From: Turneriella sp.
Lineage (GTDB): Bacteria; Spirochaetota; Leptospiria; Turneriellales; Turneriellaceae
Assembly: GCA_965279515.1 (NCBI GenBank)
Contig: CBDIID010000003.1
Span: forward strand, 3,104,001-3,168,000
DNA: 64,000 nt
Reading direction: 5' to 3'
The stretch's first letter is position 1. Each line of letters starts with the position of its first letter. Positions 4,278 through 18,620 of the stretch are shown here, piece after piece. The notes under the pieces are model-generated. The model was not told where the DNA came from. It searched no databases and saw only the letters and a list, made by a program, of their open reading frames with translations. Position numbers and translations under genes: made by a program.

Positions 4278-4522
4278 TTTGGTGTTGAGAATGACCGTAA
4301 CGGTATTTTCATCTGACCCCTCAAGCTATCTATTGTCAATTTTTCAGGGTTTCTCTCGGTTTTAGGCTGGAAGCCGCTGGGGAATTATGTCGCATTTTGG
4401 GTAATAGCCGATGGCAGAGTCTGTTTTTAGGGCAAATACGATTTGACGTAAGGTTCTCGCGGTTCGGTCGTGGGAAAATGTCGCCGAGTATTCAGGTTAG
4501 CGTGTGCATTAAGGAATTTTTG

Positions 4523-4807
4523 ATGCCACTTGTCAGAGATGTTTTGGTGCTGGGAAAGCAGGCGGCTATTGGGCCCGCTGCGATGAGCAGGGCATTGAAT
4601 TTTTTGCATGCCCGGAAATTTACATTGCTCAGCATCGAGGATGAAGTTATTGAGGGTGTTTTCATCAGGGATACGTTGCTCAAAAAAATTCCAGAACAAA
4701 AGGTGATTAGTCTCATATTGCAGCATGTTAAACCGACGATGCAGGAATCGGAGATTCTTAAGATCGATCTGGATGTAGAACTGCGTATAGAGGATGTATT
4801 CCTGTGA
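4523..4807 (+). CDS. Hypothetical protein
   Basis: AAGGA RBS before ATG 4523; stop overlaps the start of the kinase gene (GTGA). Confidence 0.7.
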   Translation: MPLVRDVLVLGKQAAIGPAAMSRALNFLHARKFTLLSIEDEVIEGVFIRDTLLKKIPEQKVISLILQHVKPTMQESEILKIDLDVELRIEDVFL

Positions 4808-5874
4808 CACAAGCAGCGCTTTTGACGGAAGTTAAAAATTGTGTTTGCGTGAAATTGTTTGATCGTGTCGCCGAATGCACTGAGATTGAAGGTGACAGGG
4901 AATCTACACACTTTGTTGTGATGGCCGAGCACGGATTTGATAAAGTCGTCGCGCCTTCTGATTTGCCCCGCTTTCCGAATTTCCGGGTTTTTGCAGATAT
5001 CAAGCCGCGGAGCAAATGGGCCCTGCTGGAAAATTTCGAAGATGTAGAGAAAATCGATCGCTCAGGTTATTGCGGTGTAGTGCATTTTAACAAGAGCCAG
5101 GGGCGCCACGTGCTCTACCGGTTTCTTGATGAGGAAGCGATGTCTGTTGCCGCGCGGGTTGAGAAGAGTTACGAAGATTACCTGGCCTTTCTCGCCCACG
5201 AGTTCCGCAATGTTGCGCATGGAGTTCTGAAAATCAGCGAGGTTAATTTTATGAAATTCAATCCCGCTGAATTTTTGAAGGTCGTGGGCGAAAAAATAAC
5301 GCAACTTACCTCGGTTTACCTTGTACCGGACAGGAAAATGCAGTATGCCTCTGAGGCTTCGTATGCCACGAAGATTTCTTTGGCCCGATTCGTAAGAAAT
5401 GCCCAATTGATTGTGGAGCCGTCCGCAATCGCCGCTGGCGTGAAAATCTCAACCTTTGTTTGCGCAAGGGCGCATGAAAAAATCACGATCTCCGAAACTC
5501 ATCTTCTTCAAGCGCTCGTGAATTTGCTGCTGAACGCGATACGCTATGCCGGTTTTCATGCCAATGTGCACCTTAATGCCCGGCTGGAAACCGATGGGTC
5601 TGGTCTGGAAAGCGTATGCTTCGCCGTTTCGGACGATGGCCCCGGCATTATCGAAGCTGAACGCGAGAAAATATTCGAGAAGAAGTACCGCGGACGCGAG
5701 TCCAGTAGCGTCGCCGGCTCGGGTTTGGGCCTATCTATTGTGCAAGATATGGCGCACAGGGTTGGTGGTGAGTGCGGCGTAAATTCACCCCCTGAGCTGT
5801 ACCTTGTACAACCCGGAAAAGGTGCGGAATTCTGGATTCGTGTACCGTTAGCCCGGGATTTCAAGGTTGCTTAA
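4804..5874 (+). CDS. Cytoplasmic sensor histidine kinase
   Basis: H-box AHEFRN, N-box NLLLNAIRY, G1 DDGPGI, G2 GSGLGL. Confidence 0.9.
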   Translation: MTQAALLTEVKNCVCVKLFDRVAECTEIEGDRESTHFVVMAEHGFDKVVAPSDLPRFPNFRVFADIKPRSKWALLENFEDVEKIDRSGYCGVVHFNKSQGRHVLYRFLDEEAMSVAARVEKSYEDYLAFLAHEFRNVAHGVLKISEVNFMKFNPAEFLKVVGEKITQLTSVYLVPDRKMQYASEASYATKISLARFVRNAQLIVEPSAIAAGVKISTFVCARAHEKITISETHLLQALVNLLLNAIRYAGFHANVHLNARLETDGSGLESVCFAVSDDGPGIIEAEREKIFEKKYRGRESSSVAGSGLGLSIVQDMAHRVGGECGVNSPPELYLVQPGKGAEFWIRVPLARDFKVA

Positions 5875-6061
5875 ATCTCTGCAGAACCTCTTCTAATCGC
5901 AGCGTCTGCATGGCGCCGACAGCATTCTCCCAGCGCCCCTCTGCACACAGCCCACTCACACCCGCAGCCTCATACGCCGCCTGCGCGGCAGCAATACAGG
6001 CATCGCGCACCACCGCAGCCAGCTCATCAGGGCTCAACTCTGATCGTAGTTTACCGGGCAT
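5861..6061 (-). CDS. Small conserved protein (66 aa); its 5' end is the first array repeat
   Basis: MPGKLRSEL..VRDACIAAAQAAYEAAGVSGLCAEGRWENAVGAMQTL resembles a widespread small family often loosely labelled acetyltransferase; ATG at 6061 lies inside repeat R1. Confidence 0.75.
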   Translation of the reverse strand: MPGKLRSELSPDELAAVVRDACIAAAQAAYEAAGVSGLCAEGRWENAVGAMQTLRLEEVLQRFKQP

Positions 6062-6090
6062 GGGGTAGGGACGCGGGTGGAATCGGCGCG
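6042..6090 (+). repeat. Array repeat R1
   Basis: GATCGTAGTTTACCGGGCATGGGGTAGGGACGCGGGTGGAATCGGCGCG. Confidence 0.9.
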
Positions 6091-6121
6091 TAAAGATTGT
6101 TAGGGGGAGCCGCATAGATAT

Positions 6122-7048
6122 ATGAAAACACTTCAGATTCATGATTTTTCAAAAATTTTGGATAAATTTGATCGAAAGGATAACATGTCTTCACCAAAGA
6201 TATATGATACTGCAAAAGCTGAAAATTTCAAGAACGAATTCGAAAATTTAGCGAAGACTCTCCAAGCCGATAAATACTGCGTAGTTGGAATCGATATACT
6301 TGGTTATAGTCAATATGAATTTGAAACTCAGGCAATAATTCCACCAGTATTTAAAATACTATTGGATGAGGTCCTCAGACACCTTGTGGGTGCTGAATAT
6401 TTTCTGTTTCATTCTCACACAGAGACTGATCTGCGAAAAAAATTTATTTCTACCGGGGATGGTGGATTCTTGGTTTTGGAAAATCCTCTACAAGGTTTGA
6501 TATGTGCCCTTAAATTTGCCTCGATTCTCCATTTGTTTAATTCTTATAGTTTCTATCCAAGTATGCGCAAGTATTTAGGGGAACTTAAGGTTCGTTATTG
6601 TTTAACCTATAACTCAGTTTTTGAGTTTGAAAGTAACTTCTTTGGATCGGGCCTTATAAACAATGCTCGAATTATGTCACGCGATAAGCTTGACCGCTGT
6701 CTAATGGATAAGGATTCATATACTTGGTTCCTCGAAAAAATAAATGGTCTTGAATCTTTGCAAATATTTGACATGAAAGAAATTTCCGTAAAGCTCGGTA
6801 TTCCGATTCCTAGCCTACCGAAGGGGCCTTTTAGCTACTCAGGAATATTGAACACGCCTTTTGACAAGCCTCGGCTGCGCGCCATAGTGACCCAGAAAAT
6901 CGGATCGGTAAAAGCTAAGGCTCAATTGCTCGACGTATACAACCTGTTCGTCCAAGTATCAACCACTTATCTGGAGGAAACCACTCATGAGCCAGACAAC
7001 TATGTTGTGAATTTAGGAAATCTCAATACGGTCGGTATCGCCGATTGA
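6122..7048 (+). CDS. Class III nucleotidyl cyclase-like protein (cassette)
   Basis: GIDILGYSQ, STGDGGFLV, NFFGSGLINNARIM match the metal-binding Asp and N-x3-R motifs. Confidence 0.65.
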   Translation: MKTLQIHDFSKILDKFDRKDNMSSPKIYDTAKAENFKNEFENLAKTLQADKYCVVGIDILGYSQYEFETQAIIPPVFKILLDEVLRHLVGAEYFLFHSHTETDLRKKFISTGDGGFLVLENPLQGLICALKFASILHLFNSYSFYPSMRKYLGELKVRYCLTYNSVFEFESNFFGSGLINNARIMSRDKLDRCLMDKDSYTWFLEKINGLESLQIFDMKEISVKLGIPIPSLPKGPFSYSGILNTPFDKPRLRAIVTQKIGSVKAKAQLLDVYNLFVQVSTTYLEETTHEPDNYVVNLGNLNTVGIAD

Positions 7049-7075
7049 TGCAACGTTTGGCGCAACTTTCCAACC

Positions 7076-7176
7076 ATGAAACAGATACGAATATTTTTTT
7101 TGGGATGCTCATTCTAAGCTGCAAAGATTCAAATGAGAACTTAACTACGCCAAAACAAAGTAAAACAAGCAAGCTT
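7076..7176 (+). pseudogene. Truncated, frameshifted lipoprotein gene remnant
   Basis: Adding one T to the T8 run gives MKQIRIFFFGMLILSCKDSNEN (lipobox-like); runs directly into half-repeat R2. Confidence 0.5.
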
Positions 7177-7200
7177 GCAGGTGGAATTGGCGGGGGAGGG
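7177..7200 (+). repeat. Array repeat R2 (3' half only)
   Basis: GCAGGTGGAATTGGCGGGGGAGGG. Confidence 0.85.
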
Positions 7201-7205
7201 GCGAC

Positions 7206-7499
7206 ATGAAATATCAGCTAGTGCTTCAATTTCCCGAGCCAAGGGAAGATCCTTTCGATTTTATTGAGCGCCTTAGCGAAGAGATTGAGGCAAATCTGAA
7301 GCATGTCTCAGATTTTGATGGGCATGATATTGGTCAGGGTGAAATTAATTTTTTCATTCGCACGGATTGGCCTGAAAGAGAATTTGAAAATCTCTTTAAC
7401 CTATTAGATACGAAAGAATTAAGAGCTGGCTATCGAGATTTTGATGAAGACGAGTATAAAAGTTTGTTTCCCCACGGCTCAAAATTTCAAGTTAAATGA
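7206..7499 (+). CDS. Small acidic hypothetical protein (cassette/immunity-like)
   Basis: MKYQLVLQF..DGHDIGQGEINFFI; starts 5 bp after R2. Confidence 0.8.
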   Translation: MKYQLVLQFPEPREDPFDFIERLSEEIEANLKHVSDFDGHDIGQGEINFFIRTDWPEREFENLFNLLDTKELRAGYRDFDEDEYKSLFPHGSKFQVK

Positions 7500-7549
7500 A
7501 ATAGTCGCAGGGAGGGGGTAGCGTCAGCAATGGCCTGAGATAGACATGT

Positions 7550-7996
7550 ATGGCAAAATATACATATAGCGAGTATCCACCAACCTTAGCCGAGGCCAGC
7601 ATCCCATATGCGGAATTTTTGAAGACGCAAAATTTACCGGGCCAGATAATTTGGGTAAGGCCATCACAAATTTTAATTTGGCGCCGAACCTGTTATGTAA
7701 AGAATCCAGGTAAGAACAGCTCAGAAGTTAACGATTTGTATAAAAATAACTATAAACGCTTTGGAGCACGGGTTGATGGTCTCGGACCTTTAGATAATCA
7801 AGTAGTAGCTCAAATTACAATGCCATTAAATGATCTGACAGCCCAATATCGTCAGGTCGGGACAAGTCACTTAGGCTACAGTATGCTAGTTGAGCCCATT
7901 AGATGCAAAGCTGTGCATTCCAATCTATTCTGGCGCGTTTTGCAGATGCTTGGGGCTCGCCATTGGGAAGAAGAGCCCAACCGCTTGCTGATGTAA
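7550..7996 (+). CDS. Hypothetical protein (cassette)
   Basis: 148-aa ORF co-oriented with the array. Confidence 0.7.
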   Translation: MAKYTYSEYPPTLAEASIPYAEFLKTQNLPGQIIWVRPSQILIWRRTCYVKNPGKNSSEVNDLYKNNYKRFGARVDGLGPLDNQVVAQITMPLNDLTAQYRQVGTSHLGYSMLVEPIRCKAVHSNLFWRVLQMLGARHWEEEPNRLLM

Positions 7997-8058
7997 GATC
8001 GAGGCACGACTACAATCAATACGCGCCAGTAGCGGAGAGCTCACGCAGAGTTTTTCCA

Positions 8059-8114
8059 ATCGTAGTTTACCGGCCACCGTGTGTGGGCGCGGGTGGACTG
8101 GCGGGGGGGGGGGG
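8059..8114 (+). repeat. Array repeat R3, ending in a G12 run
   Basis: ATCGTAGTTTACCGGCCACCGTGTGTGGGCGCGGGTGGACTGGC followed by G12. Confidence 0.92.
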
Positions 8115-8141
8115 CGAAACCCCCAAGAAAGATAGAACAAC

Positions 8142-8390
8142 ATGAGTGAAATAATTCAAGCCCATCAGTATTCAACTAATAACAGAAAATTAATTGAAAA
8201 TAGCTCACTTTGTGGTTGTTATTATTGTAAAAAAATATATTCAGCGGTAGAAGTTACAGATTACTTAGCGGAAGGCTCTGGTACTGCGCTTTGTCCGAAA
8301 TGCGGTATCGATTCTGTTTTACCTGATAAGAGCGGCTTTCAAATAACAAAGGATTTTTTGAAGTCAATGCATGCGTATTGGTTCTCATAG
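8142..8390 (+). CDS. Small Zn-binding Cys-rich protein (cassette)
   Basis: CGCYYC and ALCPKCGIDSV, ending HAYWF. Confidence 0.85.
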   Translation: MSEIIQAHQYSTNNRKLIENSSLCGCYYCKKIYSAVEVTDYLAEGSGTALCPKCGIDSVLPDKSGFQITKDFLKSMHAYWFS

Positions 8391-8404
8391 GAATAGGATA
8401 TTCC

Positions 8405-8454
8405 GATCGTGGTTTACCGGCCGCGGGACGTGGGCGCGGGTGGATTGGCGGGGG
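8405..8454 (+). repeat. Array repeat R4
   Basis: GATCGTGGTTTACCGGCCGCGGGACGTGGGCGCGGGTGGATTGGCGGGGG. Confidence 0.92.
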
Positions 8455-8492
8455 CGTCAGATTCGGCGGCTCAATTCCAGTAACCAGGGAGG

Positions 8493-9344
8493 TTGGTTTT
8501 GTCAGAAAAATACATTCAGAAAAATGACCCAAATTTAGTCCGTGAAGTCGGTATTTGCCGGGATATCCTGGAATCCATGCGACAAAGCGGATTGAAAGAT
8601 TTAGCAATCACCAATGTGGACTTCAATTTTACCTCCGATGATAAAGAAGAGCTGAAGGGTCTACAGGCCGACTTGGCTGCTGAATTCAAATTTAAAGTCG
8701 ATTACCTGAAATCCATCGCAACAATACGTCGCGAATATGAGCTTTCCATAGAAATGCAAGGTGTTATCATCAGCGATGACCTTTTAATTTTTCTCATTGG
8801 CTACCTATTCACGAAAGCCTTGAACCATAACTGCTGTTTCGGTGACTGGGGCGCAAGCGTCTCAGATAAAATCTATGACTTAAAGGTGGCGACGAAGGAT
8901 GCATTACAAGATAAAGGGTATGAGTATTATCATGGACAACGATTTTACCTCGCTTACCAGTCTTTTTATCTAGCCAACTTAAAAAAAGCCACTGCCGAAC
9001 TGGAGTTCAATCTGGGATGCCTTAAGTATGATTATGGTTTTCGGGGTGATGCAACCGACCATTTTACAAATGCCATTACTATAGATCCGAAAAATCTAAC
9101 GCCATATCTCAACCGCGGCGTTGCTTATTACGATATGCAAGAATATGAAAAAGCCATTTCAGACTATCAGATGGCAACGCGCGATGAGCCCAAGAACCCT
9201 AGCCCGTACATCAATTTGGGGAATGCTTATATCAAGCTCGGAAACAAGGACTTGGCAATCCAAAATTATGACAAGGCGATTGCCTTAGGCGCTGAAGATG
9301 GGCCGAAGATTAAGGCCCATGGACTTAGCCAAATTCAGCTTTGA
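8493..9344 (+). CDS. TPR protein with possible N-terminal RraB-like domain (cassette)
   Basis: TPRs YLNRGVAYYDMQEYEKAISDY and YINLGNAYIKLG; N-terminal VDFNF..FGDWGA; start uncertain. Confidence 0.8.
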   Translation: MVLSEKYIQKNDPNLVREVGICRDILESMRQSGLKDLAITNVDFNFTSDDKEELKGLQADLAAEFKFKVDYLKSIATIRREYELSIEMQGVIISDDLLIFLIGYLFTKALNHNCCFGDWGASVSDKIYDLKVATKDALQDKGYEYYHGQRFYLAYQSFYLANLKKATAELEFNLGCLKYDYGFRGDATDHFTNAITIDPKNLTPYLNRGVAYYDMQEYEKAISDYQMATRDEPKNPSPYINLGNAYIKLGNKDLAIQNYDKAIALGAEDGPKIKAHGLSQIQL

Positions 9345-9904
9345 TGAACTCAATCCGTATTGAAACAAAGAGATTGATCCTACGCACCTGGCAGCGCGAA
9401 GATCTGAGTGATTTCGCGGCTATGAACGCAGATCCCGATGTGATGCGGTTTTTCCCGGCGCCGCTGACGGCAAACGAATCCGGGTTGTTATTTGAAAGAC
9501 TGATTCGCCATTTCGAACTGAAAGGCTTCGGTCTATTTGCGCTTGAACTGAAATCAAGGCCAGGTTTGATTGGATTTACTGGCTTATCAACGGTGACCTT
9601 TACCGCACCGTTTGGCGAAGATATTGAATTAGGGTGGCGCATCATGCGCGAATACCAAGGGAATGGTTATGCAACCGAGGCCGCAAATGCGGCAAAGAAT
9701 TACGGGTTCGATGTATTGGGTCTCAAATCGCTTGTGGCATTTACTGTGCCAACGAACTTGCCATCCCGAAGGGTCATGGAGAAAATCGGCATGGTTCATA
9801 ACCCTGACGATGATTTTGATCACCCGAGAGTCCCTGAGCATCATCCGCTAAGGCGGCATGTGCTGTATAGAGTTGGGGCAACGAGTTCGGCTATTTCGCT
9901 CTGA
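9344..9904 (+). CDS. GNAT N-acetyltransferase, RimJ/RimL type (cassette)
   Basis: IETKRLILR, ELGWR..YQGNGYATEAA, NLPSRRVMEKIGM; TGATG coupling with the TPR gene; stop codon overlaps R5. Confidence 0.93.
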   Translation: MNSIRIETKRLILRTWQREDLSDFAAMNADPDVMRFFPAPLTANESGLLFERLIRHFELKGFGLFALELKSRPGLIGFTGLSTVTFTAPFGEDIELGWRIMREYQGNGYATEAANAAKNYGFDVLGLKSLVAFTVPTNLPSRRVMEKIGMVHNPDDDFDHPRVPEHHPLRRHVLYRVGATSSAISL

Positions 9905-9960
9905 TCGTAGTTTACTGGCTACGGGGTGTGGGCGCAGGTGGAATTGGCGGGGGAGGGGGG
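9903..9960 (+). repeat. Array repeat R5
   Basis: GATCGTAGTTTACTGGCTACGGGGTGTGGGCGCAGGTGGAATTGGCGGGGGAGGGGGG. Confidence 0.92.
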
Positions 9961-9980
9961 GAAAGCCTCGGGAAGATATT

Positions 9981-10397
9981 TTGAGACTAAATATTCATAC
10001 AGTTTACATTCATTTTGTTGATGGCGTTGAGGCATTTCGGCCAGTCAAAGCTTTGGTTGATTTGCAAGGTTGCTCACAGATATTACCAACTGCAGATTAC
10101 GACCCAACAGATAGGACAGAATTATGGTCTTTCAGACCTGGGGATAAGGTTCTGGTAAGAAATCAAGAATTCGGTAAAGACAAGACGATCGGCGATCTTG
10201 CTTACGCGCCATATAGAGAAGCCGAACAAATAAAGGACCTGAATTGGTTCCTCTATAATTTAGTGTTAGAAAAAATCCAGCTCGGCAAACCGATTCAAGA
10301 ATCTCACGCTGATTTTATTAACCAAATTAGAAACGATTTGGCACAGGGCATTTTTCATTATCCGGTCATCAAGGAAAAGATTCAGGATTTAGGATAG
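9981..10397 (+). CDS. Hypothetical protein (cassette)
   Basis: TVYIHFVDGVEAFRPVKA..YDP..ELWSFRPGD; TTG start chosen downstream of R5. Confidence 0.7.
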   Translation: MRLNIHTVYIHFVDGVEAFRPVKALVDLQGCSQILPTADYDPTDRTELWSFRPGDKVLVRNQEFGKDKTIGDLAYAPYREAEQIKDLNWFLYNLVLEKIQLGKPIQESHADFINQIRNDLAQGIFHYPVIKEKIQDLG

Positions 10398-10463
10398 TAC
10401 CTTGAACCGGGGCCTTAAGATGACAAAAAATGCCGCGATTACTGTGGTGGCTGGCTCCCGCCC

Positions 10464-10516
10464 GATCGTAGTTTACCGGACACGGGATATGGGTGTGGTG
10501 GGATTGGCGGGAGGAG
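10464..10516 (+). repeat. Array repeat R6
   Basis: GATCGTAGTTTACCGGACACGGGATATGGGTGTGGTGGGATTGGCGGGAGGAG. Confidence 0.88.
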
Positions 10517-10551
10517 CGTTGACCCCCAGCAGCCATACTAGGAGAATATTC

Positions 10552-11079
10552 ATGCAAGAATCAACTGAAGTTAAGATATTAGCTGGTGGTCCGCGAGCAG
10601 CAGTTATTAGCATTTTGACATTGGGCTTACTTGGAATATTCCTAAGATTCGCTTCGAGTAACTTTAATCCTCAAAACGAAATACCAGAAATTATGTTCCG
10701 CATCATTCTTCTTGCGCCATTTGCTTGGCTATTACTTAAACCTTCAAAGATCGCCTATCAAGGTGTTTTAGCCGTATTCGGAGTAAATTTACTGATCAGT
10801 TTAATAATCACCATCCAGGCTCCGACGCCGATAATCATCGTCCCTTTAATAATGCAGACAGTATTAGGCATTTATCTTTTCTCATCTTACGCACAGGCTT
10901 TTAGTACGAAGTCAAAAAATACGGTTAAGCGCATTTATGCGCAGGCCCGGGAGGCTGAATCGAAAAAGCAGTATTTGGAAGCTAAGAATCTATACGCGCA
11001 GGTAGTGACAGAGTATCCTGGCACCTTGGAGGCCGAACTCGCTGCGGAATGTTTGCAACATTTGCCGCCAACCGTTTGA
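10552..11079 (+). CDS. Four-TM membrane protein with C-terminal TPR-like helices (cassette)
   Basis: AGGAG RBS; four hydrophobic segments; YAQVVTEYPGT. Confidence 0.75.
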   Translation: MQESTEVKILAGGPRAAVISILTLGLLGIFLRFASSNFNPQNEIPEIMFRIILLAPFAWLLLKPSKIAYQGVLAVFGVNLLISLIITIQAPTPIIIVPLIMQTVLGIYLFSSYAQAFSTKSKNTVKRIYAQAREAESKKQYLEAKNLYAQVVTEYPGTLEAELAAECLQHLPPTV

Positions 11080-11117
11080 GTCTTCTAAGCTTAATTGGAA
11101 AGATTGCTAACAGAGAA

Positions 11118-11918
11118 ATGAAATTCTTAGTTTTGATAATTCTGATCATAATGCAAGTGCCAGCCTGCTCGAAACCACCTAAAACGGAGCCATTCGAGTG
11201 CAAGTGCTATTACAGATTTAGCTCGAATGACGTGAAACAAGTCCCTTTCGATCCCGACAAGAGTCACTCACTGTACGAAAAGCAAGAGTATGATAAACTT
11301 ATGGATTTGTGTCTTGCGTATGAAAAGCCCAGCCGTGAAGCGATTGGATGGCTCGCCGAAGCTTCCTTTGCGATCGCAGAGATAGGAGCTGGAAATGGGG
11401 TGCCCAATGGTTCACCGGAGATATACCTTGATAGCGCGTCTGATGAAATAGCTCACGATTATAGCCATGCAACAGAACGCCCCGCTCATTATTGGCCCAA
11501 GGAAATACGGTTCCGCTATGGTGCTTTAGCCATTTGCGCAACATCGTGTTATGCAGAGACAACAAACCCTGAGGACGAAAATTATTCTGAATACCAGAAA
11601 AGGCTACTCGTAGTCTTAATACGAACCAAGCAGTATGGTGAAATTCACAATTTCATAAAATCTGCAAAAGCATCGGGCATGTTGAAGAGATTGGATGCAA
11701 CTTTTTTTCTGGACCTTGGTTCTCAATTCATTAAGTTAAGTGACCTTATTGAAGGAGTTCGATACATTAAATTCCTGCATAAACACATTCCACAACAGAA
11801 AAATCAATTAACTTATTGGCGTAAGTTATTCTTATACGCGGCGGAGCATGACCAAAGACTCGGCGTTATGCAAAGAAATCATGCAAAATCAGAAATCGAT
11901 AAAACATTTCCGCAGTAG
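11118..11918 (+). CDS. Lipoprotein (cassette)
   Basis: Signal and lipobox MKFLVLIILIIMQVPAC. Confidence 0.75.
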   Translation: MKFLVLIILIIMQVPACSKPPKTEPFECKCYYRFSSNDVKQVPFDPDKSHSLYEKQEYDKLMDLCLAYEKPSREAIGWLAEASFAIAEIGAGNGVPNGSPEIYLDSASDEIAHDYSHATERPAHYWPKEIRFRYGALAICATSCYAETTNPEDENYSEYQKRLLVVLIRTKQYGEIHNFIKSAKASGMLKRLDATFFLDLGSQFIKLSDLIEGVRYIKFLHKHIPQQKNQLTYWRKLFLYAAEHDQRLGVMQRNHAKSEIDKTFPQ

Positions 11919-11940
11919 CCAATCTGATCGGGCTCGTTTT

Positions 11941-11992
11941 GATCGTAGTTTACTAACCACACGGTATGGGCGCGGGTGGATTGGCGGGGGAG
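11941..11992 (+). repeat. Array repeat R7
   Basis: GATCGTAGTTTACTAACCACACGGTATGGGCGCGGGTGGATTGGCGGGGGAG. Confidence 0.92.
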
Positions 11993-12006
11993 AGGGTAAG
12001 ACTCGA

Positions 12007-12420
12007 ATGATAAATCTCCTGAAATTCCTAAAGAGACTTTGGCCAAAGGAGAAAGAACTTTGGACTGAAGAAAAGAGCGAGGCTAAACAATGTCTCCATT
12101 GCGGTCGGCTCGGTTCGGGCTATCGAATAAGCTCCCCCGGTCAACTTGCGGAGACAATATTAATTCTGCAAGAGATGCTTAACGACCAAACGCTATCAGA
12201 GGTGCCAAATCTGAAAGGCATGGTTCAGAAGCACAACAAACCATTTGGCCGCGTGTCTGCACGAGGAAAGTGGGAGGATACGCTTATCTACGATTTCGAA
12301 TGTAAGCACTGCCATGATTTTTTTCATTTGGGAGTAGATACCTACCATGGAGGCGGTGGTAGATTGAAGAGAATAGGTCCAGAAATCCAGTATGATAGAT
12401 ATGGTAATACGCTTGCTTAG
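12007..12420 (+). CDS. Zn-ribbon hypothetical protein (cassette)
   Basis: CLHC and FECKHC..FHLGVDTYHGGGG. Confidence 0.75.
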   Translation: MINLLKFLKRLWPKEKELWTEEKSEAKQCLHCGRLGSGYRISSPGQLAETILILQEMLNDQTLSEVPNLKGMVQKHNKPFGRVSARGKWEDTLIYDFECKHCHDFFHLGVDTYHGGGGRLKRIGPEIQYDRYGNTLA

Positions 12421-12433
12421 AATGCTCATTTAC

Positions 12434-12487
12434 GATCCGGGTTTACCCGGCACGGCGCGTGGGCGCGGGCGGAATTGGCGGGGGAAG
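12434..12487 (+). repeat. Array repeat R8
   Basis: GATCCGGGTTTACCCGGCACGGCGCGTGGGCGCGGGCGGAATTGGCGGGGGAAG. Confidence 0.88.
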
Positions 12488-12503
12488 CGGAATTACATAA
12501 ACT

Positions 12504-12776
12504 ATGAACCCAAATAAAATGCCGGTTCTGAGTTTTTGGCCGCGCTTCTTTTTGGATTTATTGGCAGCCGTTACGATGACTATTGTTGGTATGTGGGGAA
12601 CATACCTGTTCTCACTTTCTGACTTCTGGCCCTCTCTTCGCCATCCTGGCGGGGGGCAACACAGTGACCTTAGGGATTTAGTTGAAAACCATTACTGGCT
12701 TATAATTTTAATCGGTACAGTCACTCTTACTTATTATCAACAAGCCAGAAGGCGAAAATCAGGTACGCAGAAATAA
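12504..12776 (+). CDS. Small two-TM membrane protein (cassette)
   Basis: Two hydrophobic segments; starts just after R8. Confidence 0.65.
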   Translation: MNPNKMPVLSFWPRFFLDLLAAVTMTIVGMWGTYLFSLSDFWPSLRHPGGGQHSDLRDLVENHYWLIILIGTVTLTYYQQARRRKSGTQK

Positions 12777-12863
12777 TTGTGCAACTTTGATGCATGTAGG
12801 GTGATGTGCCAAGCCTCCCGCACAGTAGCGGTAACCTTGGCCGGGCGCCTAGACCACTTTTTC

Positions 12864-12897
12864 TTGACGATGCGCTTGTTGTACAATAAATTGTACC
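12864..12897 (+). promoter_or_regulatory. yefM-yoeB promoter and operator
   Basis: TTGACG-N17-TAAATT overlapping TGTACA (12880) and TGTACC (12892), 12 bp apart, like the known YefM operator. Confidence 0.75.
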
Positions 12898-12899
12898 TA

Positions 12900-13148
12900 A
12901 TGGAAGCCGTATCTTACAGCGATCTCCGGAAAAATCTCAAGAAGTACATGGATGATGTATACACAGGCCATTATCCCCTGATCATTACGAGAAAAAATGA
13001 TGAGAATGTTGTCATGATTTCTTTAGATGAGTTTAACGCCTTACAAGAAACCAACTATCTCCTGGCATCAGACGCGAATGCAAAACATCTCAAAAAATCT
13101 ATATCACAGCATAAATCCGGCAAGTTGAAACAAATCAAGATTGCTTGA
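12900..13148 (+). CDS. yefM: Phd/YefM antitoxin
   Basis: VSYSDLRKNLKKYMD..PLIITRK..VVMISLDEFNALQETNYLL. Confidence 0.95.
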   Translation: MEAVSYSDLRKNLKKYMDDVYTGHYPLIITRKNDENVVMISLDEFNALQETNYLLASDANAKHLKKSISQHKSGKLKQIKIA

Positions 13149-13405
13149 TGAATGTTTTATTTACGGACGCCGGTTGGCAGGACTACATTTACTGGCAAAC
13201 GGAAGATCGAAAGACTTTAAAGAGAATCAATGATCTTATTAGAGATATCAAACGATCGCCTTATGAAGGCATCGGAAAACCAGAACCGTTGAAGCATCAA
13301 CTACAAGGGTATTGGTCCCGCAGAATTGATCCGGAACATCGGCTTGTTTACCAGGCTGAGGGCAATAAGACACTGATTATCATTGCCTGTCGTTATCATT
13401 ACTAA
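13148..13405 (+). CDS. yoeB: Txe/YoeB mRNase toxin
   Basis: WQDYIYWQ..GIGKPEPLK..YWSRRID.EHRLVY..CRYHY. Confidence 0.97.
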   Translation: MNVLFTDAGWQDYIYWQTEDRKTLKRINDLIRDIKRSPYEGIGKPEPLKHQLQGYWSRRIDPEHRLVYQAEGNKTLIIIACRYHY

Positions 13406-13450
13406 GTCAGCACTGCGGTCAGCGGCAGCGAGTCGAGGAGTATGGCACCA

Positions 13451-13501
13451 ATCGGCATTTCACGGCCACGGGGTGTGAGCGCGGGTGGAATTGGCGGGGG
13501 G
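13451..13501 (+). repeat. Array repeat R9
   Basis: ATCGGCATTTCACGGCCACGGGGTGTGAGCGCGGGTGGAATTGGCGGGGGG. Confidence 0.85.
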
Positions 13502-13567
13502 ACGTAAATCCAAGAGCTATTTTCCTGAAATATTGCCGCGAGTCTGAAAATAGTCGACATTCCATAC

Positions 13568-13586
13568 GTATATTGTAAACATATAC
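13568..13586 (+). promoter_or_regulatory. Putative brnTA operator (inverted repeat)
   Basis: GTATAT-N7-ATATAC immediately before the brnT ATG. Confidence 0.5.
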
Positions 13587-13886
13587 ATGATAATTCCTGA
13601 TTTTGAAGCCGTGGAAGGCTTTGAATGGGGCAAAGGGAATGTAGACAAAAATTATGATAAGTACCAGGTTACAAATCTTGAATGCGAAGAAATTTTCATG
13701 AACGAACCGCTGCTGATATTTTCAGACGATTTGCACTCAAATAACGAAGACCGATACACTGCCTTTGGCAAAACAAACCACTTTCGGTTTCTCGCATTGA
13801 CTTTCATTCTAAGAAAGAACCGAATTCGTGTTGTTTCAGCGCGCGATATGTCAGCGAAGGAGAAAAAGCAATATGAAAACACTTAA
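13587..13886 (+). CDS. brnT: BrnT family toxin
   Basis: GFEW..N..K..ECEEIF..HS.NEDRY..G..IRVVSAR.MS.KEK..Y. Confidence 0.92.
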   Translation: MIIPDFEAVEGFEWGKGNVDKNYDKYQVTNLECEEIFMNEPLLIFSDDLHSNNEDRYTAFGKTNHFRFLALTFILRKNRIRVVSARDMSAKEKKQYENT

Positions 13887-14148
13887 AAAAATGCCCAAAT
13901 TCAAGACTGAGGATGCAGAGAGAGAATTTTGGGCAAAGAACGACTTTACTGACTTTCTGGATTTTTCGAAAGGCATCAAGGCTAAATTTCCCAACCTAAA
14001 ACCTTCGACCCAGACCATTTCGCTGCGATTGCCGGAGTCACTACTGACCGATATCAAAGTTTTAGCGAACAGGCAAGACGTGCCTTACCAGTCCTATATC
14101 AAAATGCTTTTAGCGGAGAAGATTGCGGAAAAGCTTCGTAAGCGATGA
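13873..14148 (+). CDS. brnA: BrnA/CopG-family antitoxin
   Basis: PKFKTEDAEREFW..ISLRLP..IKVLANRQDVPYQSYIK. Confidence 0.9.
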   Translation: MKTLKKMPKFKTEDAEREFWAKNDFTDFLDFSKGIKAKFPNLKPSTQTISLRLPESLLTDIKVLANRQDVPYQSYIKMLLAEKIAEKLRKR

Positions 14149-14192
14149 TTTAGGGCCACAGCATTCACCAATCTCGATCCAATTCGCTTCCC

Positions 14193-14217
14193 ATCGTAGT
14201 TTACCAACCTAGGGGCG
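14193..14217 (+). repeat. Array repeat R10 (5' half; distal boundary)
   Basis: ATCGTAGTTTACCAACCTAGGGGCG. Confidence 0.75.
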
Positions 14218-14345
14218 AAGGCGAAGAGGTCGCCATCGCTTTCAAGTGTTCTCCCTTTGTTTTTGACATGCTGCGCGATCAAAAGGGCTTCCGGCCCGCT
14301 CCGTATCTGGCCTCGCGGCAACGTCGAGCTTAACAAACTCATTTC

Positions 14346-15107
14346 CTATGGTTTGCTGAGCTTCCATATCCTGGGTAGTAACTTACCCACCCGCCGGCGG
14401 TATTCGGCATAGGTTGATCCGAAGCTGTGCATCAGCGCGCGTTCCTCAAAATACAAACCGATAAAAATATAAGCGGTCACTGCTGCCGAGAGTAACGCAT
14501 GGCCGGTAGACATGTGGGGAGTCGCCCATAACAGAATCAGTATGCCGAGTTGCATCGGATGCCGTACGTAACGGTAAAGCGCAGGTTGTCGGAACTCGTG
14601 ACCTTGGTCTTGCGCGGATTTGCACCAGCCCGATTGCCGCAAGCCCACGAGAGCAGCATGGTCAATCAGGAAAGTAGACCAAACGGCGAAGATGAGGCCC
14701 AGGGCAAAAAACGAAAAAATCAGCGCTCTGGCCAGAGGCAGCTCTATGTTCCAAAGGATACCGGGCAACGGTTGCCAGAAAACGCAAATGGCGATGAGCA
14801 GCGTGGACGACGCGAATGCGTATACTGAACGCTCAAGCTGTATTGAGAACAATCGCTCAATCCATGTTTTTATTCGAGGGCGTGCTGCGACCGAATGGTG
14901 CAATCCGAAAATCAGGATTAAGGCAAGGTCGACGGCAAGCTGTGAAATCGTGTGGTTTTGCCATCGTGGCGAACGCTGATCAATGCCCAGGGGCCCAAGA
15001 TCCAATAGGAATAAGGCGAACCAGGCAAAGGCAATTAGGAACTCCAAATATGCCAAAGCCCCAAAAAAGCGGACAGCACTTTTGCCAAGTGTCGTTGCAT
15101 CGGACAC
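14346..15107 (-). CDS. Isoprenylcysteine carboxylmethyltransferase family membrane protein (MddA-like)
   Basis: FGLHHSVAAR, ERSVY, WQP, LYRYVRHPMQLG..WATP.M, EER.L..FG.TY.EYR. Confidence 0.85.
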   Translation of the reverse strand: MSDATTLGKSAVRFFGALAYLEFLIAFAWFALFLLDLGPLGIDQRSPRWQNHTISQLAVDLALILIFGLHHSVAARPRIKTWIERLFSIQLERSVYAFASSTLLIAICVFWQPLPGILWNIELPLARALIFSFFALGLIFAVWSTFLIDHAALVGLRQSGWCKSAQDQGHEFRQPALYRYVRHPMQLGILILLWATPHMSTGHALLSAAVTAYIFIGLYFEERALMHSFGSTYAEYRRRVGKLLPRIWKLSKP

Positions 15108-15911
15108 TTACTTATCCCTCCAATCAGGCGATTGATTACTTTCTTCCCAACCAGGGACTTCAAGCCAAAGACCCTCGCCGACCGCGACGAGCTCACGATT
15201 CGCATCAAAAACGGCTGAACCTACCAGATTGCGCTTGCCGGTAATTTTTTTTACCCAACCTATCACGATATGCTCCTTACCGATCATGACGGGTCGCAGG
15301 ATTTCCACTTCCAGCTTCGCGAGTACGGCTAATTTCAGCTCGCGGCCTGATAAAGCCGCGATGCCGCCCGGACAATCCAAGGCGGCCCAGATGTACCGCG
15401 CCGCAACCATGCCTTTGCCGTCATCGAGGGATGCGTCGGGAATCCAGGGGCTGGCCACCAGTTTGCCATCACGCCCTGAACCGCAGAAGATCCGCAGGCC
15501 GTCGCCGTCTACCCGCTCAGGACCGCAGACAAAACAACTGGGAAAATAATGGCGCTTAAAGCCTTCATACCCTGCCGACCATTCTCTTGCCTGATTGAAA
15601 TCGGGAGCCTCCGGCAGATCGACGGTTAAATTTCCACTGGAAGGACGCGCTTCGACCACGGGCTTGTCGCCATCGAGCAAGACCACGGAACGCTCCTCAC
15701 GGCGCACGGCTAATGCCGTTTGCAGGGGTGCCGGTGCCTTAACCCTTGCCTCTATCGGCCCCTGGGGATAATCGGTAACCAGTTCGGCGGCAAGACCGCA
15801 AACGTATCCGCCATTGCCGCTCTGGGGCGGGCCGCAAAATCTTTTCGCTACAATCGCCGACTCTGCGGGGCCGCGGGACATCATTGTCGTTTCGTGTTTT
15901 GAGTTTCTCAT
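15108..15911 (-). CDS. Double hotdog-fold thioesterase-like protein
   Basis: RFCGPPQSGNGGY, CFVCG..R.DGL, WAALDCPG; start uncertain. Confidence 0.8.
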   Translation of the reverse strand: MRNSKHETTMMSRGPAESAIVAKRFCGPPQSGNGGYVCGLAAELVTDYPQGPIEARVKAPAPLQTALAVRREERSVVLLDGDKPVVEARPSSGNLTVDLPEAPDFNQAREWSAGYEGFKRHYFPSCFVCGPERVDGDGLRIFCGSGRDGKLVASPWIPDASLDDGKGMVAARYIWAALDCPGGIAALSGRELKLAVLAKLEVEILRPVMIGKEHIVIGWVKKITGKRNLVGSAVFDANRELVAVGEGLWLEVPGWEESNQSPDWRDK

Positions 15912-15980
15912 ACCTTATCAAAAAACAGTTGCCGGAATGTTTTGCCCACGAAAGATCCATTGGAATCAAAGTATTTTTTA

Positions 15981-16454
15981 ATGGCTTCTCCCCGCAAACT
16001 CAAAGAAATTAAAATCGATCGAATTTTAGTGGTTCTTGCGGGGCTGCGCGAAATTGTCATGGAAGAGCTGGCGGATTCATACCGCCGGCTGCATGTCCAT
16101 GACATCAACCCGCCCCATGGTGCCGTTCTTTGCGCCCTGCAAACCAAGCAGCCCACCACGATGCTTGAAATTGCCGGGAAAATATTCCGGGATCAGTCGA
16201 CCGTTACCGCTCTTGTTACGCATTTGACGACGCTGGGTTACGTTAGGGTAATTCAGTCGCCCAAAGACAAACGGAAACGATTCGTCGAATTGACCGATCA
16301 GGGAAAAGAATTGCGCGCCAAAGTTACCAAAGCAGCCCGTAAGATTCAAAGACAGATTTTTGACGGGATTCCATCCCGGGACAGGAAAAAACTGATGGAG
16401 ATGCTCGTGCAGATTGGGCATAACCTGCACAGCCCGCATTTTTCAGAGCAATAA
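15981..16454 (+). CDS. MarR family regulator
   Basis: DQSTVTALVTHL..GYV..SPKDKRKRFVELT; divergent from the thioesterase. Confidence 0.9.
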   Translation: MASPRKLKEIKIDRILVVLAGLREIVMEELADSYRRLHVHDINPPHGAVLCALQTKQPTTMLEIAGKIFRDQSTVTALVTHLTTLGYVRVIQSPKDKRKRFVELTDQGKELRAKVTKAARKIQRQIFDGIPSRDRKKLMEMLVQIGHNLHSPHFSEQ

Positions 16455-16530
16455 AGTCGCGCCGCGTCCCGGCTCGTATCGGCATTGACAATTTAACGCG
16501 GCCTGAGGGATTTATTTTGGGTCATAGGGG

Positions 16531-17433
16531 ATGATTACGAAAGGCGCCGGATATTATTCGAAAAAGGTCTGTAACAACGTGACTGCGATGCTGGCATACT
16601 GGGATTCAAATCAGTTATGCCGTTTTGCAAATGATGCTTATCTGCATTGGTTCGGCCGTACAGCGGAAGAGATGATCGATAAGATTTATCTGAAAGATCT
16701 GTTGGGGCCGTTATACGAGATGAATCTGCCTTATATTGAAGCGGCTTATAAGGGGCATCCGCAGGTCTTTGAACGCGCGATTACGGCACCGGACGGGAAA
16801 ATCCGGCATAGCATCGCGAGCTACACACCGGATGTGATAAACGGCCGGATTGAGGGTATTATCGTTCATGTCGCCGATGTTACATATCTGAAGGAAATAG
16901 AGCTGGAGCTGAAGCGCTCAAAGGAAAAAGCCGAGAAATTAGCGGCTCACGATTACCTGACCGGGCTTCCCAACAGATTATTTTTGAACGACCGTATTGC
17001 GGGCGCACTCACATATGCAAAAAACCATGGCACATCATTAGCGTTGTGCCTGTTGGATTTAGATTATTTCAAAAAAATCAATGATTCCTACGGCCATTTG
17101 GCTGGTGATGAAGTTTTGAAAGAATCTGCCGCTCGGCTAAAATCCGCGCTGAATTCGGCCGACACCGTTTACCGAATCGGCGGTGACGAGTTTGTGATTG
17201 TCATGGAACAAATCACGGATCCGAATCAAATTCAAGTCACCGCGGAGCGGATATTGGCGCGTTTCAGGCAACCCATGACAATCCTCGGGCAGGAAATCAC
17301 GCTCACGCTGAGCATCGGAACAGCCGTTTGCAAAGGAGCAAAAACCTCTGCTGAGGAATTGTTGCAGAAGGCAGACCACGCACTTTATCAGGCAAAAAGC
17401 CTGGGCAGGAACCGCTACTCCAACAGCGCCTGA
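16531..17433 (+). CDS. PAS-GGDEF diguanylate cyclase
   Basis: PAS domain; DYLTGLPNR, FKKINDSYGH, RIGGDEF. Confidence 0.95.
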   Translation: MITKGAGYYSKKVCNNVTAMLAYWDSNQLCRFANDAYLHWFGRTAEEMIDKIYLKDLLGPLYEMNLPYIEAAYKGHPQVFERAITAPDGKIRHSIASYTPDVINGRIEGIIVHVADVTYLKEIELELKRSKEKAEKLAAHDYLTGLPNRLFLNDRIAGALTYAKNHGTSLALCLLDLDYFKKINDSYGHLAGDEVLKESAARLKSALNSADTVYRIGGDEFVIVMEQITDPNQIQVTAERILARFRQPMTILGQEITLTLSIGTAVCKGAKTSAEELLQKADHALYQAKSLGRNRYSNSA

Positions 17434-17544
17434 AAAATTGAGCTCAGTTTACAGCGTCTGAGAGACCGGCCGGCATTCTTAGTTCTTGACGGTGTTCATG
17501 GTCCGATCTACGCGACTCCTAAACTTATTTTACCGGGGGAAATT

Positions 17545-17865
17545 ATGAAGAATGTTTTAATGAGCGGCCTTGTCGTAGCCATCATAGGTCTCACGAGTGC
17601 AACTTTCGCCAAATCAAAGGCTAAGAGCAGCAAGAGTTCAAGCAAACAAAGCAGCTCTACTTCGGGCAAACAAAGCACCACCGCCTCAAGTAAACCTAGC
17701 CAGGATGCCGCAGGAAAACAAACCACGGATACTTCGAAAGATAAGCAAAGCCAGAATCACAAGAATAAGAAAACCCATCGCTGCAGACTTCCCGATGGCA
17801 AGATTGATAGCAATAAGAGCCAGCAGGAATGCTTAAAAGCAAACGGCAAGTGGGTTAAATACTAA
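17545..17865 (+). CDS. Small exported Ser/Lys-rich protein
   Basis: Signal peptide, low-complexity middle, C-terminal C..C..GKW. Confidence 0.75.
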   Translation: MKNVLMSGLVVAIIGLTSATFAKSKAKSSKSSSKQSSSTSGKQSTTASSKPSQDAAGKQTTDTSKDKQSQNHKNKKTHRCRLPDGKIDSNKSQQECLKANGKWVKY

Positions 17866-17917
17866 GTTTCCATAATCGGCGCGGTTATCCGCGAAGCGTG
17901 GGCGCCGCCGTGCGTAT

Positions 17918-18556
17918 ATGACCGAATTCTGGGAGGCGAGTTTCCAGGAGAAAAAGGCAATGTGGGGAGAGTTTCCCACAGACGCGGCCATACGCGCCGC
18001 AGAGCTTTTCAAAGCGCGGGCATATAAGAATGTATTGATTCCCGGTATCGGGTACGGTAGAAATGCAAAACCGTTTATCGGGGCCGGCATACCTGTTACA
18101 GGAATCGAAATTTCTGAAACCGCCATAGCTATGGCGCAGGCGGGTTTCGGTTCTGAAATCCGGATTTTTCACGGTTCGGTAGCGGAGATGCCCTTTGAAG
18201 ATAAGCAATACGACAGCATTTTCAGCTTTGCGCTGATTCACCTCTTGAACGAAACAGATCGGCAGAAATTTATTGCGGCCTGTTATAATCACCTCAGGCC
18301 GGGCGGCACCATGATTTTTCTATCGATTGCTGAGAGCGCGCCGATGTTCGGTACCGGGAAGAAAATTACGGATCGCCTCTTTGAAACCATGCCGGGTGTC
18401 AGGTTGTTTTTTTATGATGCACAATCCATAGGCCGTGAATTTGGCGATTATGGGTTAGAGGGCTTTCAGCAGGTTTCAGAACCGGCAAAAAATACACCGA
18501 CTCTACCCGATCTCGATTTTCTCTGGATTGAATGCCGCAAGAAAATCCAGACCTGA
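17918..18556 (+). CDS. Class I SAM-dependent methyltransferase
   Basis: VLIPGIGYGRNA, GIEIS, HLRPGG. Confidence 0.9.
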   Translation: MTEFWEASFQEKKAMWGEFPTDAAIRAAELFKARAYKNVLIPGIGYGRNAKPFIGAGIPVTGIEISETAIAMAQAGFGSEIRIFHGSVAEMPFEDKQYDSIFSFALIHLLNETDRQKFIAACYNHLRPGGTMIFLSIAESAPMFGTGKKITDRLFETMPGVRLFFYDAQSIGREFGDYGLEGFQQVSEPAKNTPTLPDLDFLWIECRKKIQT

Positions 18557-18620
18557 ATTCTCCGTCTGCGGGATTTTTCCTGTACCGTTGATCCGCATTC
18601 ACAGTTGATTCCGGCAGGCG

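Follow-up and report, generated by a model that had tools for sequence, protein, structure and literature searches.

Nine cassette-like gene units separated by copies of a small gene's first codons in a Turneriella genome: possible tandem accretion at a gene start

To our knowledge, it is not settled how genes become mobile cassettes or how new recombination sites arise. Several described systems resemble parts of the arrangement reported here. Elements targeting dusA (10.1101/2021.06.18.448947) and the SXT/R391 elements at prfC (PMC5812530) insert at the 5′ end of a gene and supply a replacement start, and tandem arrays are known for SXT/R391, as far as the accessible portions of these papers describe them. 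According to the same portions, these elements differ from the array described here in that they measure tens of kilobases, carry their own integrase and target a conserved gene. CIME/IME accretion (PMC5704250) and the additive flexible genomic islands at tRNA genes (PMC7771536) share with our array integrase-less units that have partial target copies between them. In the accessible text of both reports the targets are gene 3′ ends or tRNAs, whereas here a small dispensable gene is targeted at its 5′ end. For integrons, the available part of 10.1101/2022.09.11.507474 gives GWT as the consensus triplet of integron-integrase insertions outside att sites, that of PMC12901181 states that attI-bounded (attI-derived) cassettes recombine, and that of PMC5027507 describes attC bottom strands as G-rich and stabilised by G:T pairs.

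The array lies in a 64,000-nucleotide stretch of a Turneriella sp. genome (the window, whose numbering is used below unless a contig is named). Upstream of a small resident gene, nine gene units follow one another, with repeat copies between them. We tentatively read it as the outcome of tandem site-specific accretion at codon 6 of that gene, driven in trans by an atypical integron integrase, and we give this reading slightly less than an even chance.

The small gene, the target of the array (5861..6061, minus strand), encodes a 66-aa protein of the GLCAEGRWE family. Its homologues comprised 531 representatives at E<=0.001, and no relatives were found in viral contigs. The protein matched no Pfam or NCBIfam family, and its database label, ‘acetyltransferase’, had no domain behind it. 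In the 15 closest homologues (GRWENA type), the protein starts at a distance of 11-17 residues from the first conserved Ala, which in the small protein lies 14 residues from the ATG at 6061 and 6 from an alternative TTG at codon 9 (alignment row L010, on the wrong strand, was left out). The N-termini of the three closest homologues, P0001 (90% identical), P0003 and P0004, on contigs of 18.9, 45.7 and 20.9 kb, retain GKLRSE, GKSGSE or LRSE. On this comparison, ATG 6061 is the best-supported candidate for the true start. The conserved fold begins at about residue 8-14, past the repeat. The gene was patchily distributed, being present in 8 of the 13 other genomes of the genus, and was found directly before rarA in five of these relatives. 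Here, a 136-aa ORF and a histidine-kinase-type gene, the latter without any other match at the thresholds used, stand between the small gene and rarA (4397-5874).

The repeat family spanned positions 6038-14211. R1 and R3-R9 are full copies, eight in all, each about 50 bp long, and two further copies are partial; all are given here on the minus strand. The repeat contains the first six codons of the small gene and about 30 upstream bases. The original prediction that it is the 5′ end of the adjacent gene was thus borne out, since R1 holds codons 1-6 of the best-supported start. R1 (6038..6088) as a whole covers codons 1-7 and about 27 upstream bases, and the putative crossover, G^AT, would fall between 6045 and 6044 in codon 6. 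The codons quoted in the prediction were correct letter for letter in R1 (ATG CCC GGT AAA CTA CGA TCA, from 6061), R3, R6, R7 and R8. A GTG stood in register in R3 (8054..8113), R6 (10460..10515), R7 (11937..11995), R8 (12430..12489) and R9 (13446..13505), the last two with a variant core, while R4 (8401..8455) had GCG and R5 (9899..9958) had GTA. R10 (14189..14211), at the far end of the array, was reduced to the core (GGTAAACTACGAT) with a different left arm and had TAG in register. R2 (7177..7201) was the C-rich arm alone, identical to R5 at 25 of 25 positions, and lacked both the GAT core and the half in which a start would lie.

Among the nine core-bearing copies, 6-9 agreed at positions in the stretch that begins with the C-rich arm and runs four bases beyond GAT, and 3-5 at positions further on; all nine shared a sharp conservation boundary at GGTAAACTACG^AT. 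Identity to R1 (33-37 of 47 positions) showed no gradient along the array, and R1 itself had a second, doubled right arm. On the plus strand, the G-rich arm of R2-R9 had four G runs (e.g. GGG-CGC-GGG ... GGGGG-A-GGGG), a possible G-quadruplex or, alternatively, a possible ribosome-binding tract of the gene that follows. Promoter-like sites occurred at chance level (15 against 15.6), and an Rfam search with the repeat gave no match. A profile search and a covariance model detected the repeat at no second locus in the 4.9-Mb genome. A REP/RAYT system was considered and rejected, as copies were confined to one locus and the single Y1 transposase was accompanied by unrelated palindromes. An IS110 system was rejected as well, with no PF02371 match and copies at one locus only.

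It had also been proposed that most copies keep a start codon. A start-like codon was indeed present in five of the nine other copies, but GTG is merely the repeat consensus at that position. Frames opening at the five GTG codons ran for only 7-50 codons, the 20 bases upstream of the start were 20-35% purine in all copies, R1 included, and the plus-strand complement of GTG lay within the inner stem of a predicted hairpin. Non-consensus letters in the six repeated codons fell 9, 8 and 7 times on codon positions 1, 2 and 3, an even spread that is not the drift pattern of coding alleles. The proposal that each unit carries an allele, so that insertion restores the gene, holds in part. A crossover would supply new codons 1-6, and the geometry of R1 agrees with restoration, but the copies are not coding-allele-like and three of the eight other core-bearing ones could not supply a start.

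Similarity reaching into the gene body, which had been noted beside R3, R5, R7 and R10, was tested on 80-nt flanks against two nulls. It was detected for R3 (p=0.004-0.035) and R7 (p about 0.02) and was absent for R4, R6 and R8; the values for R5, R9 and R10 were 0.07-0.15, 0.05-0.25 and 0.14-0.45. A second test used the spacers between the preceding stop and the core, of which five out of seven were long enough (R5 has no spacer). The R3 spacer, taken whole and in register (57 nt), gave p=0.006-0.018, the short gene-body-like spacer of R7 gave 0.03-0.09, and the five combined gave p=0.005-0.05. The similarity was therefore upheld for R3 and, weakly, at the border of significance, for R7, and it was not significant for R5, R9 and R10. 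The spacer adjoining R3 (7997..8053, minus strand) aligns in register with the body of the small gene at about 60% over 53 columns and looks like a decayed gene body.

A relative with an empty site, suggested as a check on the original prediction, was found (G001). There, a cupin-like gene and the small gene are about 80 bp apart, where this genome has 12.5 kb between them, and the flanking genes are about 77-80% identical to those of this genome. The 12.5-kb interval is made up of the 8.1-kb array and a 4.4-kb block without repeat copies. This block (14220-18600), absent from G001, contains an mddA-like methyltransferase, MarR, GGDEF and SAM methyltransferase genes, and its last gene is 48% identical to a gene in a big attC array.

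Variable arrays upstream of homologues, which had been anticipated too, were seen in none of eight genus relatives and at none of 80 distant metagenome loci (40-66% identity) among the matches listed, and the same counts hold for occupancy of the same target, as for dusA/prfC elements. In the genus relatives, the gene's own 5′-end repeats were sought upstream of it, with only 0.3 kb available in G012; 37 of the 80 metagenome loci had more than 1.5 kb upstream. Self-repeats at metagenome loci were rejected as arrays, being paralogous ends of upstream genes (L023, L040, L097), a local 53-nt duplication (L076) or short chance matches. A pattern search matched five copies here and none in the 33 other genomes of the order, and the covariance model found the eight full copies here and a single match at E=0.07 among the 33 others. 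No second instance was detected in viral contigs, GTDB contigs or plasmids, and no other array of this type turned up when the genome outside the two big attC arrays was screened. Among sequencing runs, four from one study, probably the source, contained the sequence, with no RNA run listed; their assembled contigs were identical to the window with no joint inside the array, contigs being blind to rare excision. In the literature covered by our search, we found no description of cassettes separated by host gene start copies. The accessible parts of PMC3607928 and PMC8618304 do not cover the genus Turneriella.

The original prediction also allowed that the small protein might be a component of the system, which the survey does not favour. 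No array was present at homologues (eight in the genus, 80 metagenome loci listed), and the neighbours of the distant metagenome homologues among those matches were miscellaneous by Pfam (58 of 107 neighbour ORFs scanned). Because of these array-less loci and miscellaneous neighbours, the small protein is best read as a passive target or bystander. The start of the gene in G001 resembled the core weakly (p=0.04; one of eight relatives). Starts of the form M-[PA]-x-K were present in relatives without arrays, so the core looks ancestral to the small gene.

These comparisons bear on an explanation that needs no recombinase, in which short-homology or RecA-type single crossovers with DNA of relatives carrying other genes upstream of the small gene duplicated a variable length of its 5′ end. 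The variation in end points is in keeping with this, R2 having one arm, R10 the core, R3 about 57 extra bases and R7 about 20, and unit 1 lies between two copies of the G-rich arm. However, the non-coding arm is 70-85% kept among copies and yet its counterpart in G001 does not align. The even spread of changes over codon positions, the sharp common boundary at GAT and the finding of no relative with a variable slot also argue against it, and we consider this explanation quite improbable.

The nine units measure 0.3-1.4 kb and contain 15 genes, all on the plus strand and divergent from the small gene, with a GC content of 35-45% against 53% for the chromosome. The distance from a stop to the following site is -1 to 67 nt, and starts come 13-42 nt past the previous site (90 nt for BrnT). 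Unit 1 has one gene of 308 aa (6122..7048) and unit 2 (7206..7996) has genes of 97 aa (7206-7499) and 148 aa (7550-7996), all without Pfam matches. Unit 3 encodes an 82-aa Cys-rich protein (8142..8390). Unit 4 (8493..9904) consists of a TPR protein (8493-9344) and a GNAT acetyltransferase (9341-9904) whose stop lies inside R5. The single genes of unit 5 (9981..10397; start uncertain, with the frame open from 9858) and unit 7 (12007..12420; about 137 aa, with Cys/His pairs) had no Pfam match, and between them unit 6 (10552..11918) encodes a membrane protein (10552-11079) and a putative lipoprotein (11118-11918). Unit 8 (12504..13405) carries a 90-aa membrane protein, a YefM antitoxin and a YoeB toxin, and unit 9 (13587..14148) a BrnT toxin and a BrnA antitoxin.

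Part of this cargo belongs to families that occur elsewhere as integron cassettes. Homologues of the unit 1 gene were present in 17 of 150 other genomes of the class, and 11 of the 13 loci examined in same-class genomes were canonical attC-bounded cassettes with matching GTT.../...AAC ends. The YefM-YoeB pair had a 79% identical counterpart between two canonical attC sites in G011; on inspection, four of five other YefM-YoeB homologue loci were without attC, and none of the four unit 3 homologue loci was attC-bounded. Two families (unit 1 and YefM-YoeB) are thus attC-bounded elsewhere, with homologues inspectable for only four of the nine units.

The same units bear on the possibility that an ICE or phage integrase, since lost, built the array. 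R10 is compatible with a far junction of such an element. Against this, the units are short and uniformly oriented, and their 15 genes include no integrase and no transfer-gene remnant. No integrase was found beside the examined homologue loci (58 of 107 neighbour ORFs scanned, among the matches listed), and a gene as patchily distributed as this one would be a poor target for an ICE or phage integrase. A lost integrase of this kind appears decidedly improbable.

About 140 long canonical attC-like sites were found in the genome, mostly in two arrays. Both of these cassette arrays, at about 93-171 kb and 3.73-3.81 Mb of G000:C3, are very large, have attC-like sites of 186-217 bp and begin at an attI-like site with no adjoining integrase. 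The genome contains four PF00589 (tyrosine) recombinases and one PF00239 (large serine) recombinase, all outside the array, and no match exceeded the TIGR02249 (IntI) cut-off either here or in 19 genomes of the family. The candidate integrase is a 366-aa tyrosine recombinase about 180 kb from the array (G000:C3:2926093-2927193, minus strand), which scored below that cut-off and matched IntI4 in two separate stretches. Its gene adjoins no array in this genome. In 6 of the 10 relatives fetched (L152-L161), the orthologue adjoins attC sites, and the attI-like site beside the orthologues ends in AATAGAC-GTT or similar. Just upstream of the gene, here and in several relatives, is a GAAC-N7-GAAC direct repeat, which we take to resemble a LexA box. 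A 301-aa IntI-like recombinase (G000:C3:2781225-2782130, plus strand), whose best solved match was IntI4 and which is conserved across the genus in the vicinity of purM and genes resembling xanthine dehydrogenase, was dropped as the enzyme, since no repeat array adjoins it here or at six orthologue loci. Two further observations were made on these sequences. Four near-identical units about 459 bp apart follow directly after attI in G011 (L153:4500-6260), and in each of the small contigs C1 and C2 of this genome (G000) the long ORFs occur two or three times, which suggests concatenated or mis-assembled small replicons.

The site itself, GGTAAA-CTAC-GAT, can be compared with an L box, a short spacer and a GWT-type triplet, and its GAT agrees with the GWT consensus. 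Against eight attI-like sites of the genus, the 35 nt preceding GAT scored above shuffles (p=0.001-0.065; p<=0.021 in eight of nine copies, 0.065 in R7), the copies being non-independent, and their att scores of 6-11 were about half those of true attI sites (12-26). R1 read on the plus strand was rejected as an attI (p=0.68-0.75). An attC-arm-like box abuts R1, and only R1 (6086..6101, plus strand). It matches the commonest-but-one canonical attC arm of the genome at 14 of 16 positions, and its terminal GTT lies 20 nt ahead of the unit 1 gene. Its per-position p was 5e-6, for a match noticed post hoc and equalled in score by one at 15237 inside coding sequence.

Such likenesses could also mean that the repeats are a short, degenerate attC family in an integrase-less cassette cluster. 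The first cassette would have entered at a secondary site within or next to the gene start, with the overlap with the gene a one-off, and later ones would have joined at R10 or the R1-adjacent GTT box, leaving the gene untouched. In either orientation, both repeat arms showed a likeness to canonical attC arms, with z reaching about 4. An ungapped test against genomic background gave p=0.02-0.47. The plus strand is G-rich and was the more stably folded in eight of eight copies, as were canonical attC bottom strands (25 of 25), in line with the accessible part of PMC5027507. A predicted 20-pair hairpin paired in 87% of cells, and unit 1 begins GTTAGGG directly after the canonical-type box. On the other hand, covariation in this hairpin was not above shuffles (119-234 of 500) and only 2 of 18 strand-copies had a folding energy more favourable than -2 SD. 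Ends of the RYYYAAC ... GTTRRRY form were not found, R3-R9 having ATC and GGCGGGG instead and the GTT box being present beside R1 only. The apparent ancestry of the core within the gene and the gene-body-like spacer of R3 speak against this explanation as well, and we think it unlikely.

We return to accretion at codon 6 as the preferred reading. The first codons of the small gene would contain a recombination target, GGTAAA-CTAC-G^AT, with the crossover in codon 6. Small circles, each with one site and one to three genes, would have entered one after another at G^AT, every insertion leaving a further copy behind. Codons 1-6 and the upstream bases would come from whichever copy lies closest to the small gene, so that the gene would stay intact. 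The recombinase would act in trans and is most likely the atypical 366-aa integron integrase of the genus, given the resemblance of the site to its attI/attC boxes and a cargo that derives in part from the pool of attC cassettes. By analogy, integron logic would favour R10 as the growing end and attP logic R1; R10, being only a core, might be the far junction. A single fixed crossover does not account for R2 without its core or for the doubled arm of R1, and the weak att likeness, the antisense orientation of all 15 genes relative to the GAT site and the occurrence in one genome only count against an integrase acting in trans. A bolder version, which we also regard as unlikely, is that the atypical integrase turned a gene start into a new class of recombination site, which was copied onto captured genes, and that these cassettes re-insert and mend the start. 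If this were true, the array would be a snapshot of the birth of cassettes and att sites, and a substrate for studying how genes gain recombination sites.

The geometry, kept from the original prediction, would be that of dusA/prfC elements and CIME accretion, without a sign that restoration is selected. Recombination of these sites by the 366-aa enzyme would mean that gene starts can become founding points of new arrays for integron-type systems, and detection based on attC would miss such arrays. Otherwise, the locus is a neat but solitary case of tandem accretion at a gene 5′ end. Compared with CIME/IME or additive islands, the units here look like integron cassettes. They are similar to those of CALIN, attG insertions and delta-attI-type cassettes in having one to few genes per unit, toxin-antitoxin and GNAT cargo and co-oriented genes, as far as the accessible text of 10.1101/2022.09.11.507474 and PMC12901181 goes. 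With integron attI/attG sites, as these sources in part describe them, the repeat may share the GWT crossover triplet, an attI-like spacing (TAA-5 nt-GWT) and a recombinase in trans, the last being our proposal for this locus. Unlike in integrons, the candidate integrase is below the IntI family cut-off and the 15 genes, read toward the GAT site, are antisense without exception; genes in the canonical arrays of this genome are mostly sense (26 of 38 gaps). Unlike CALIN and integrons, the array has no attC closed by AAC/GTT, and its sites are copies of a host gene start. What this one genome shows is a row of nine cassette-like units separated by the first codons of a host gene, and not by attC, in the presence of about 140 canonical sites and a candidate integrase.
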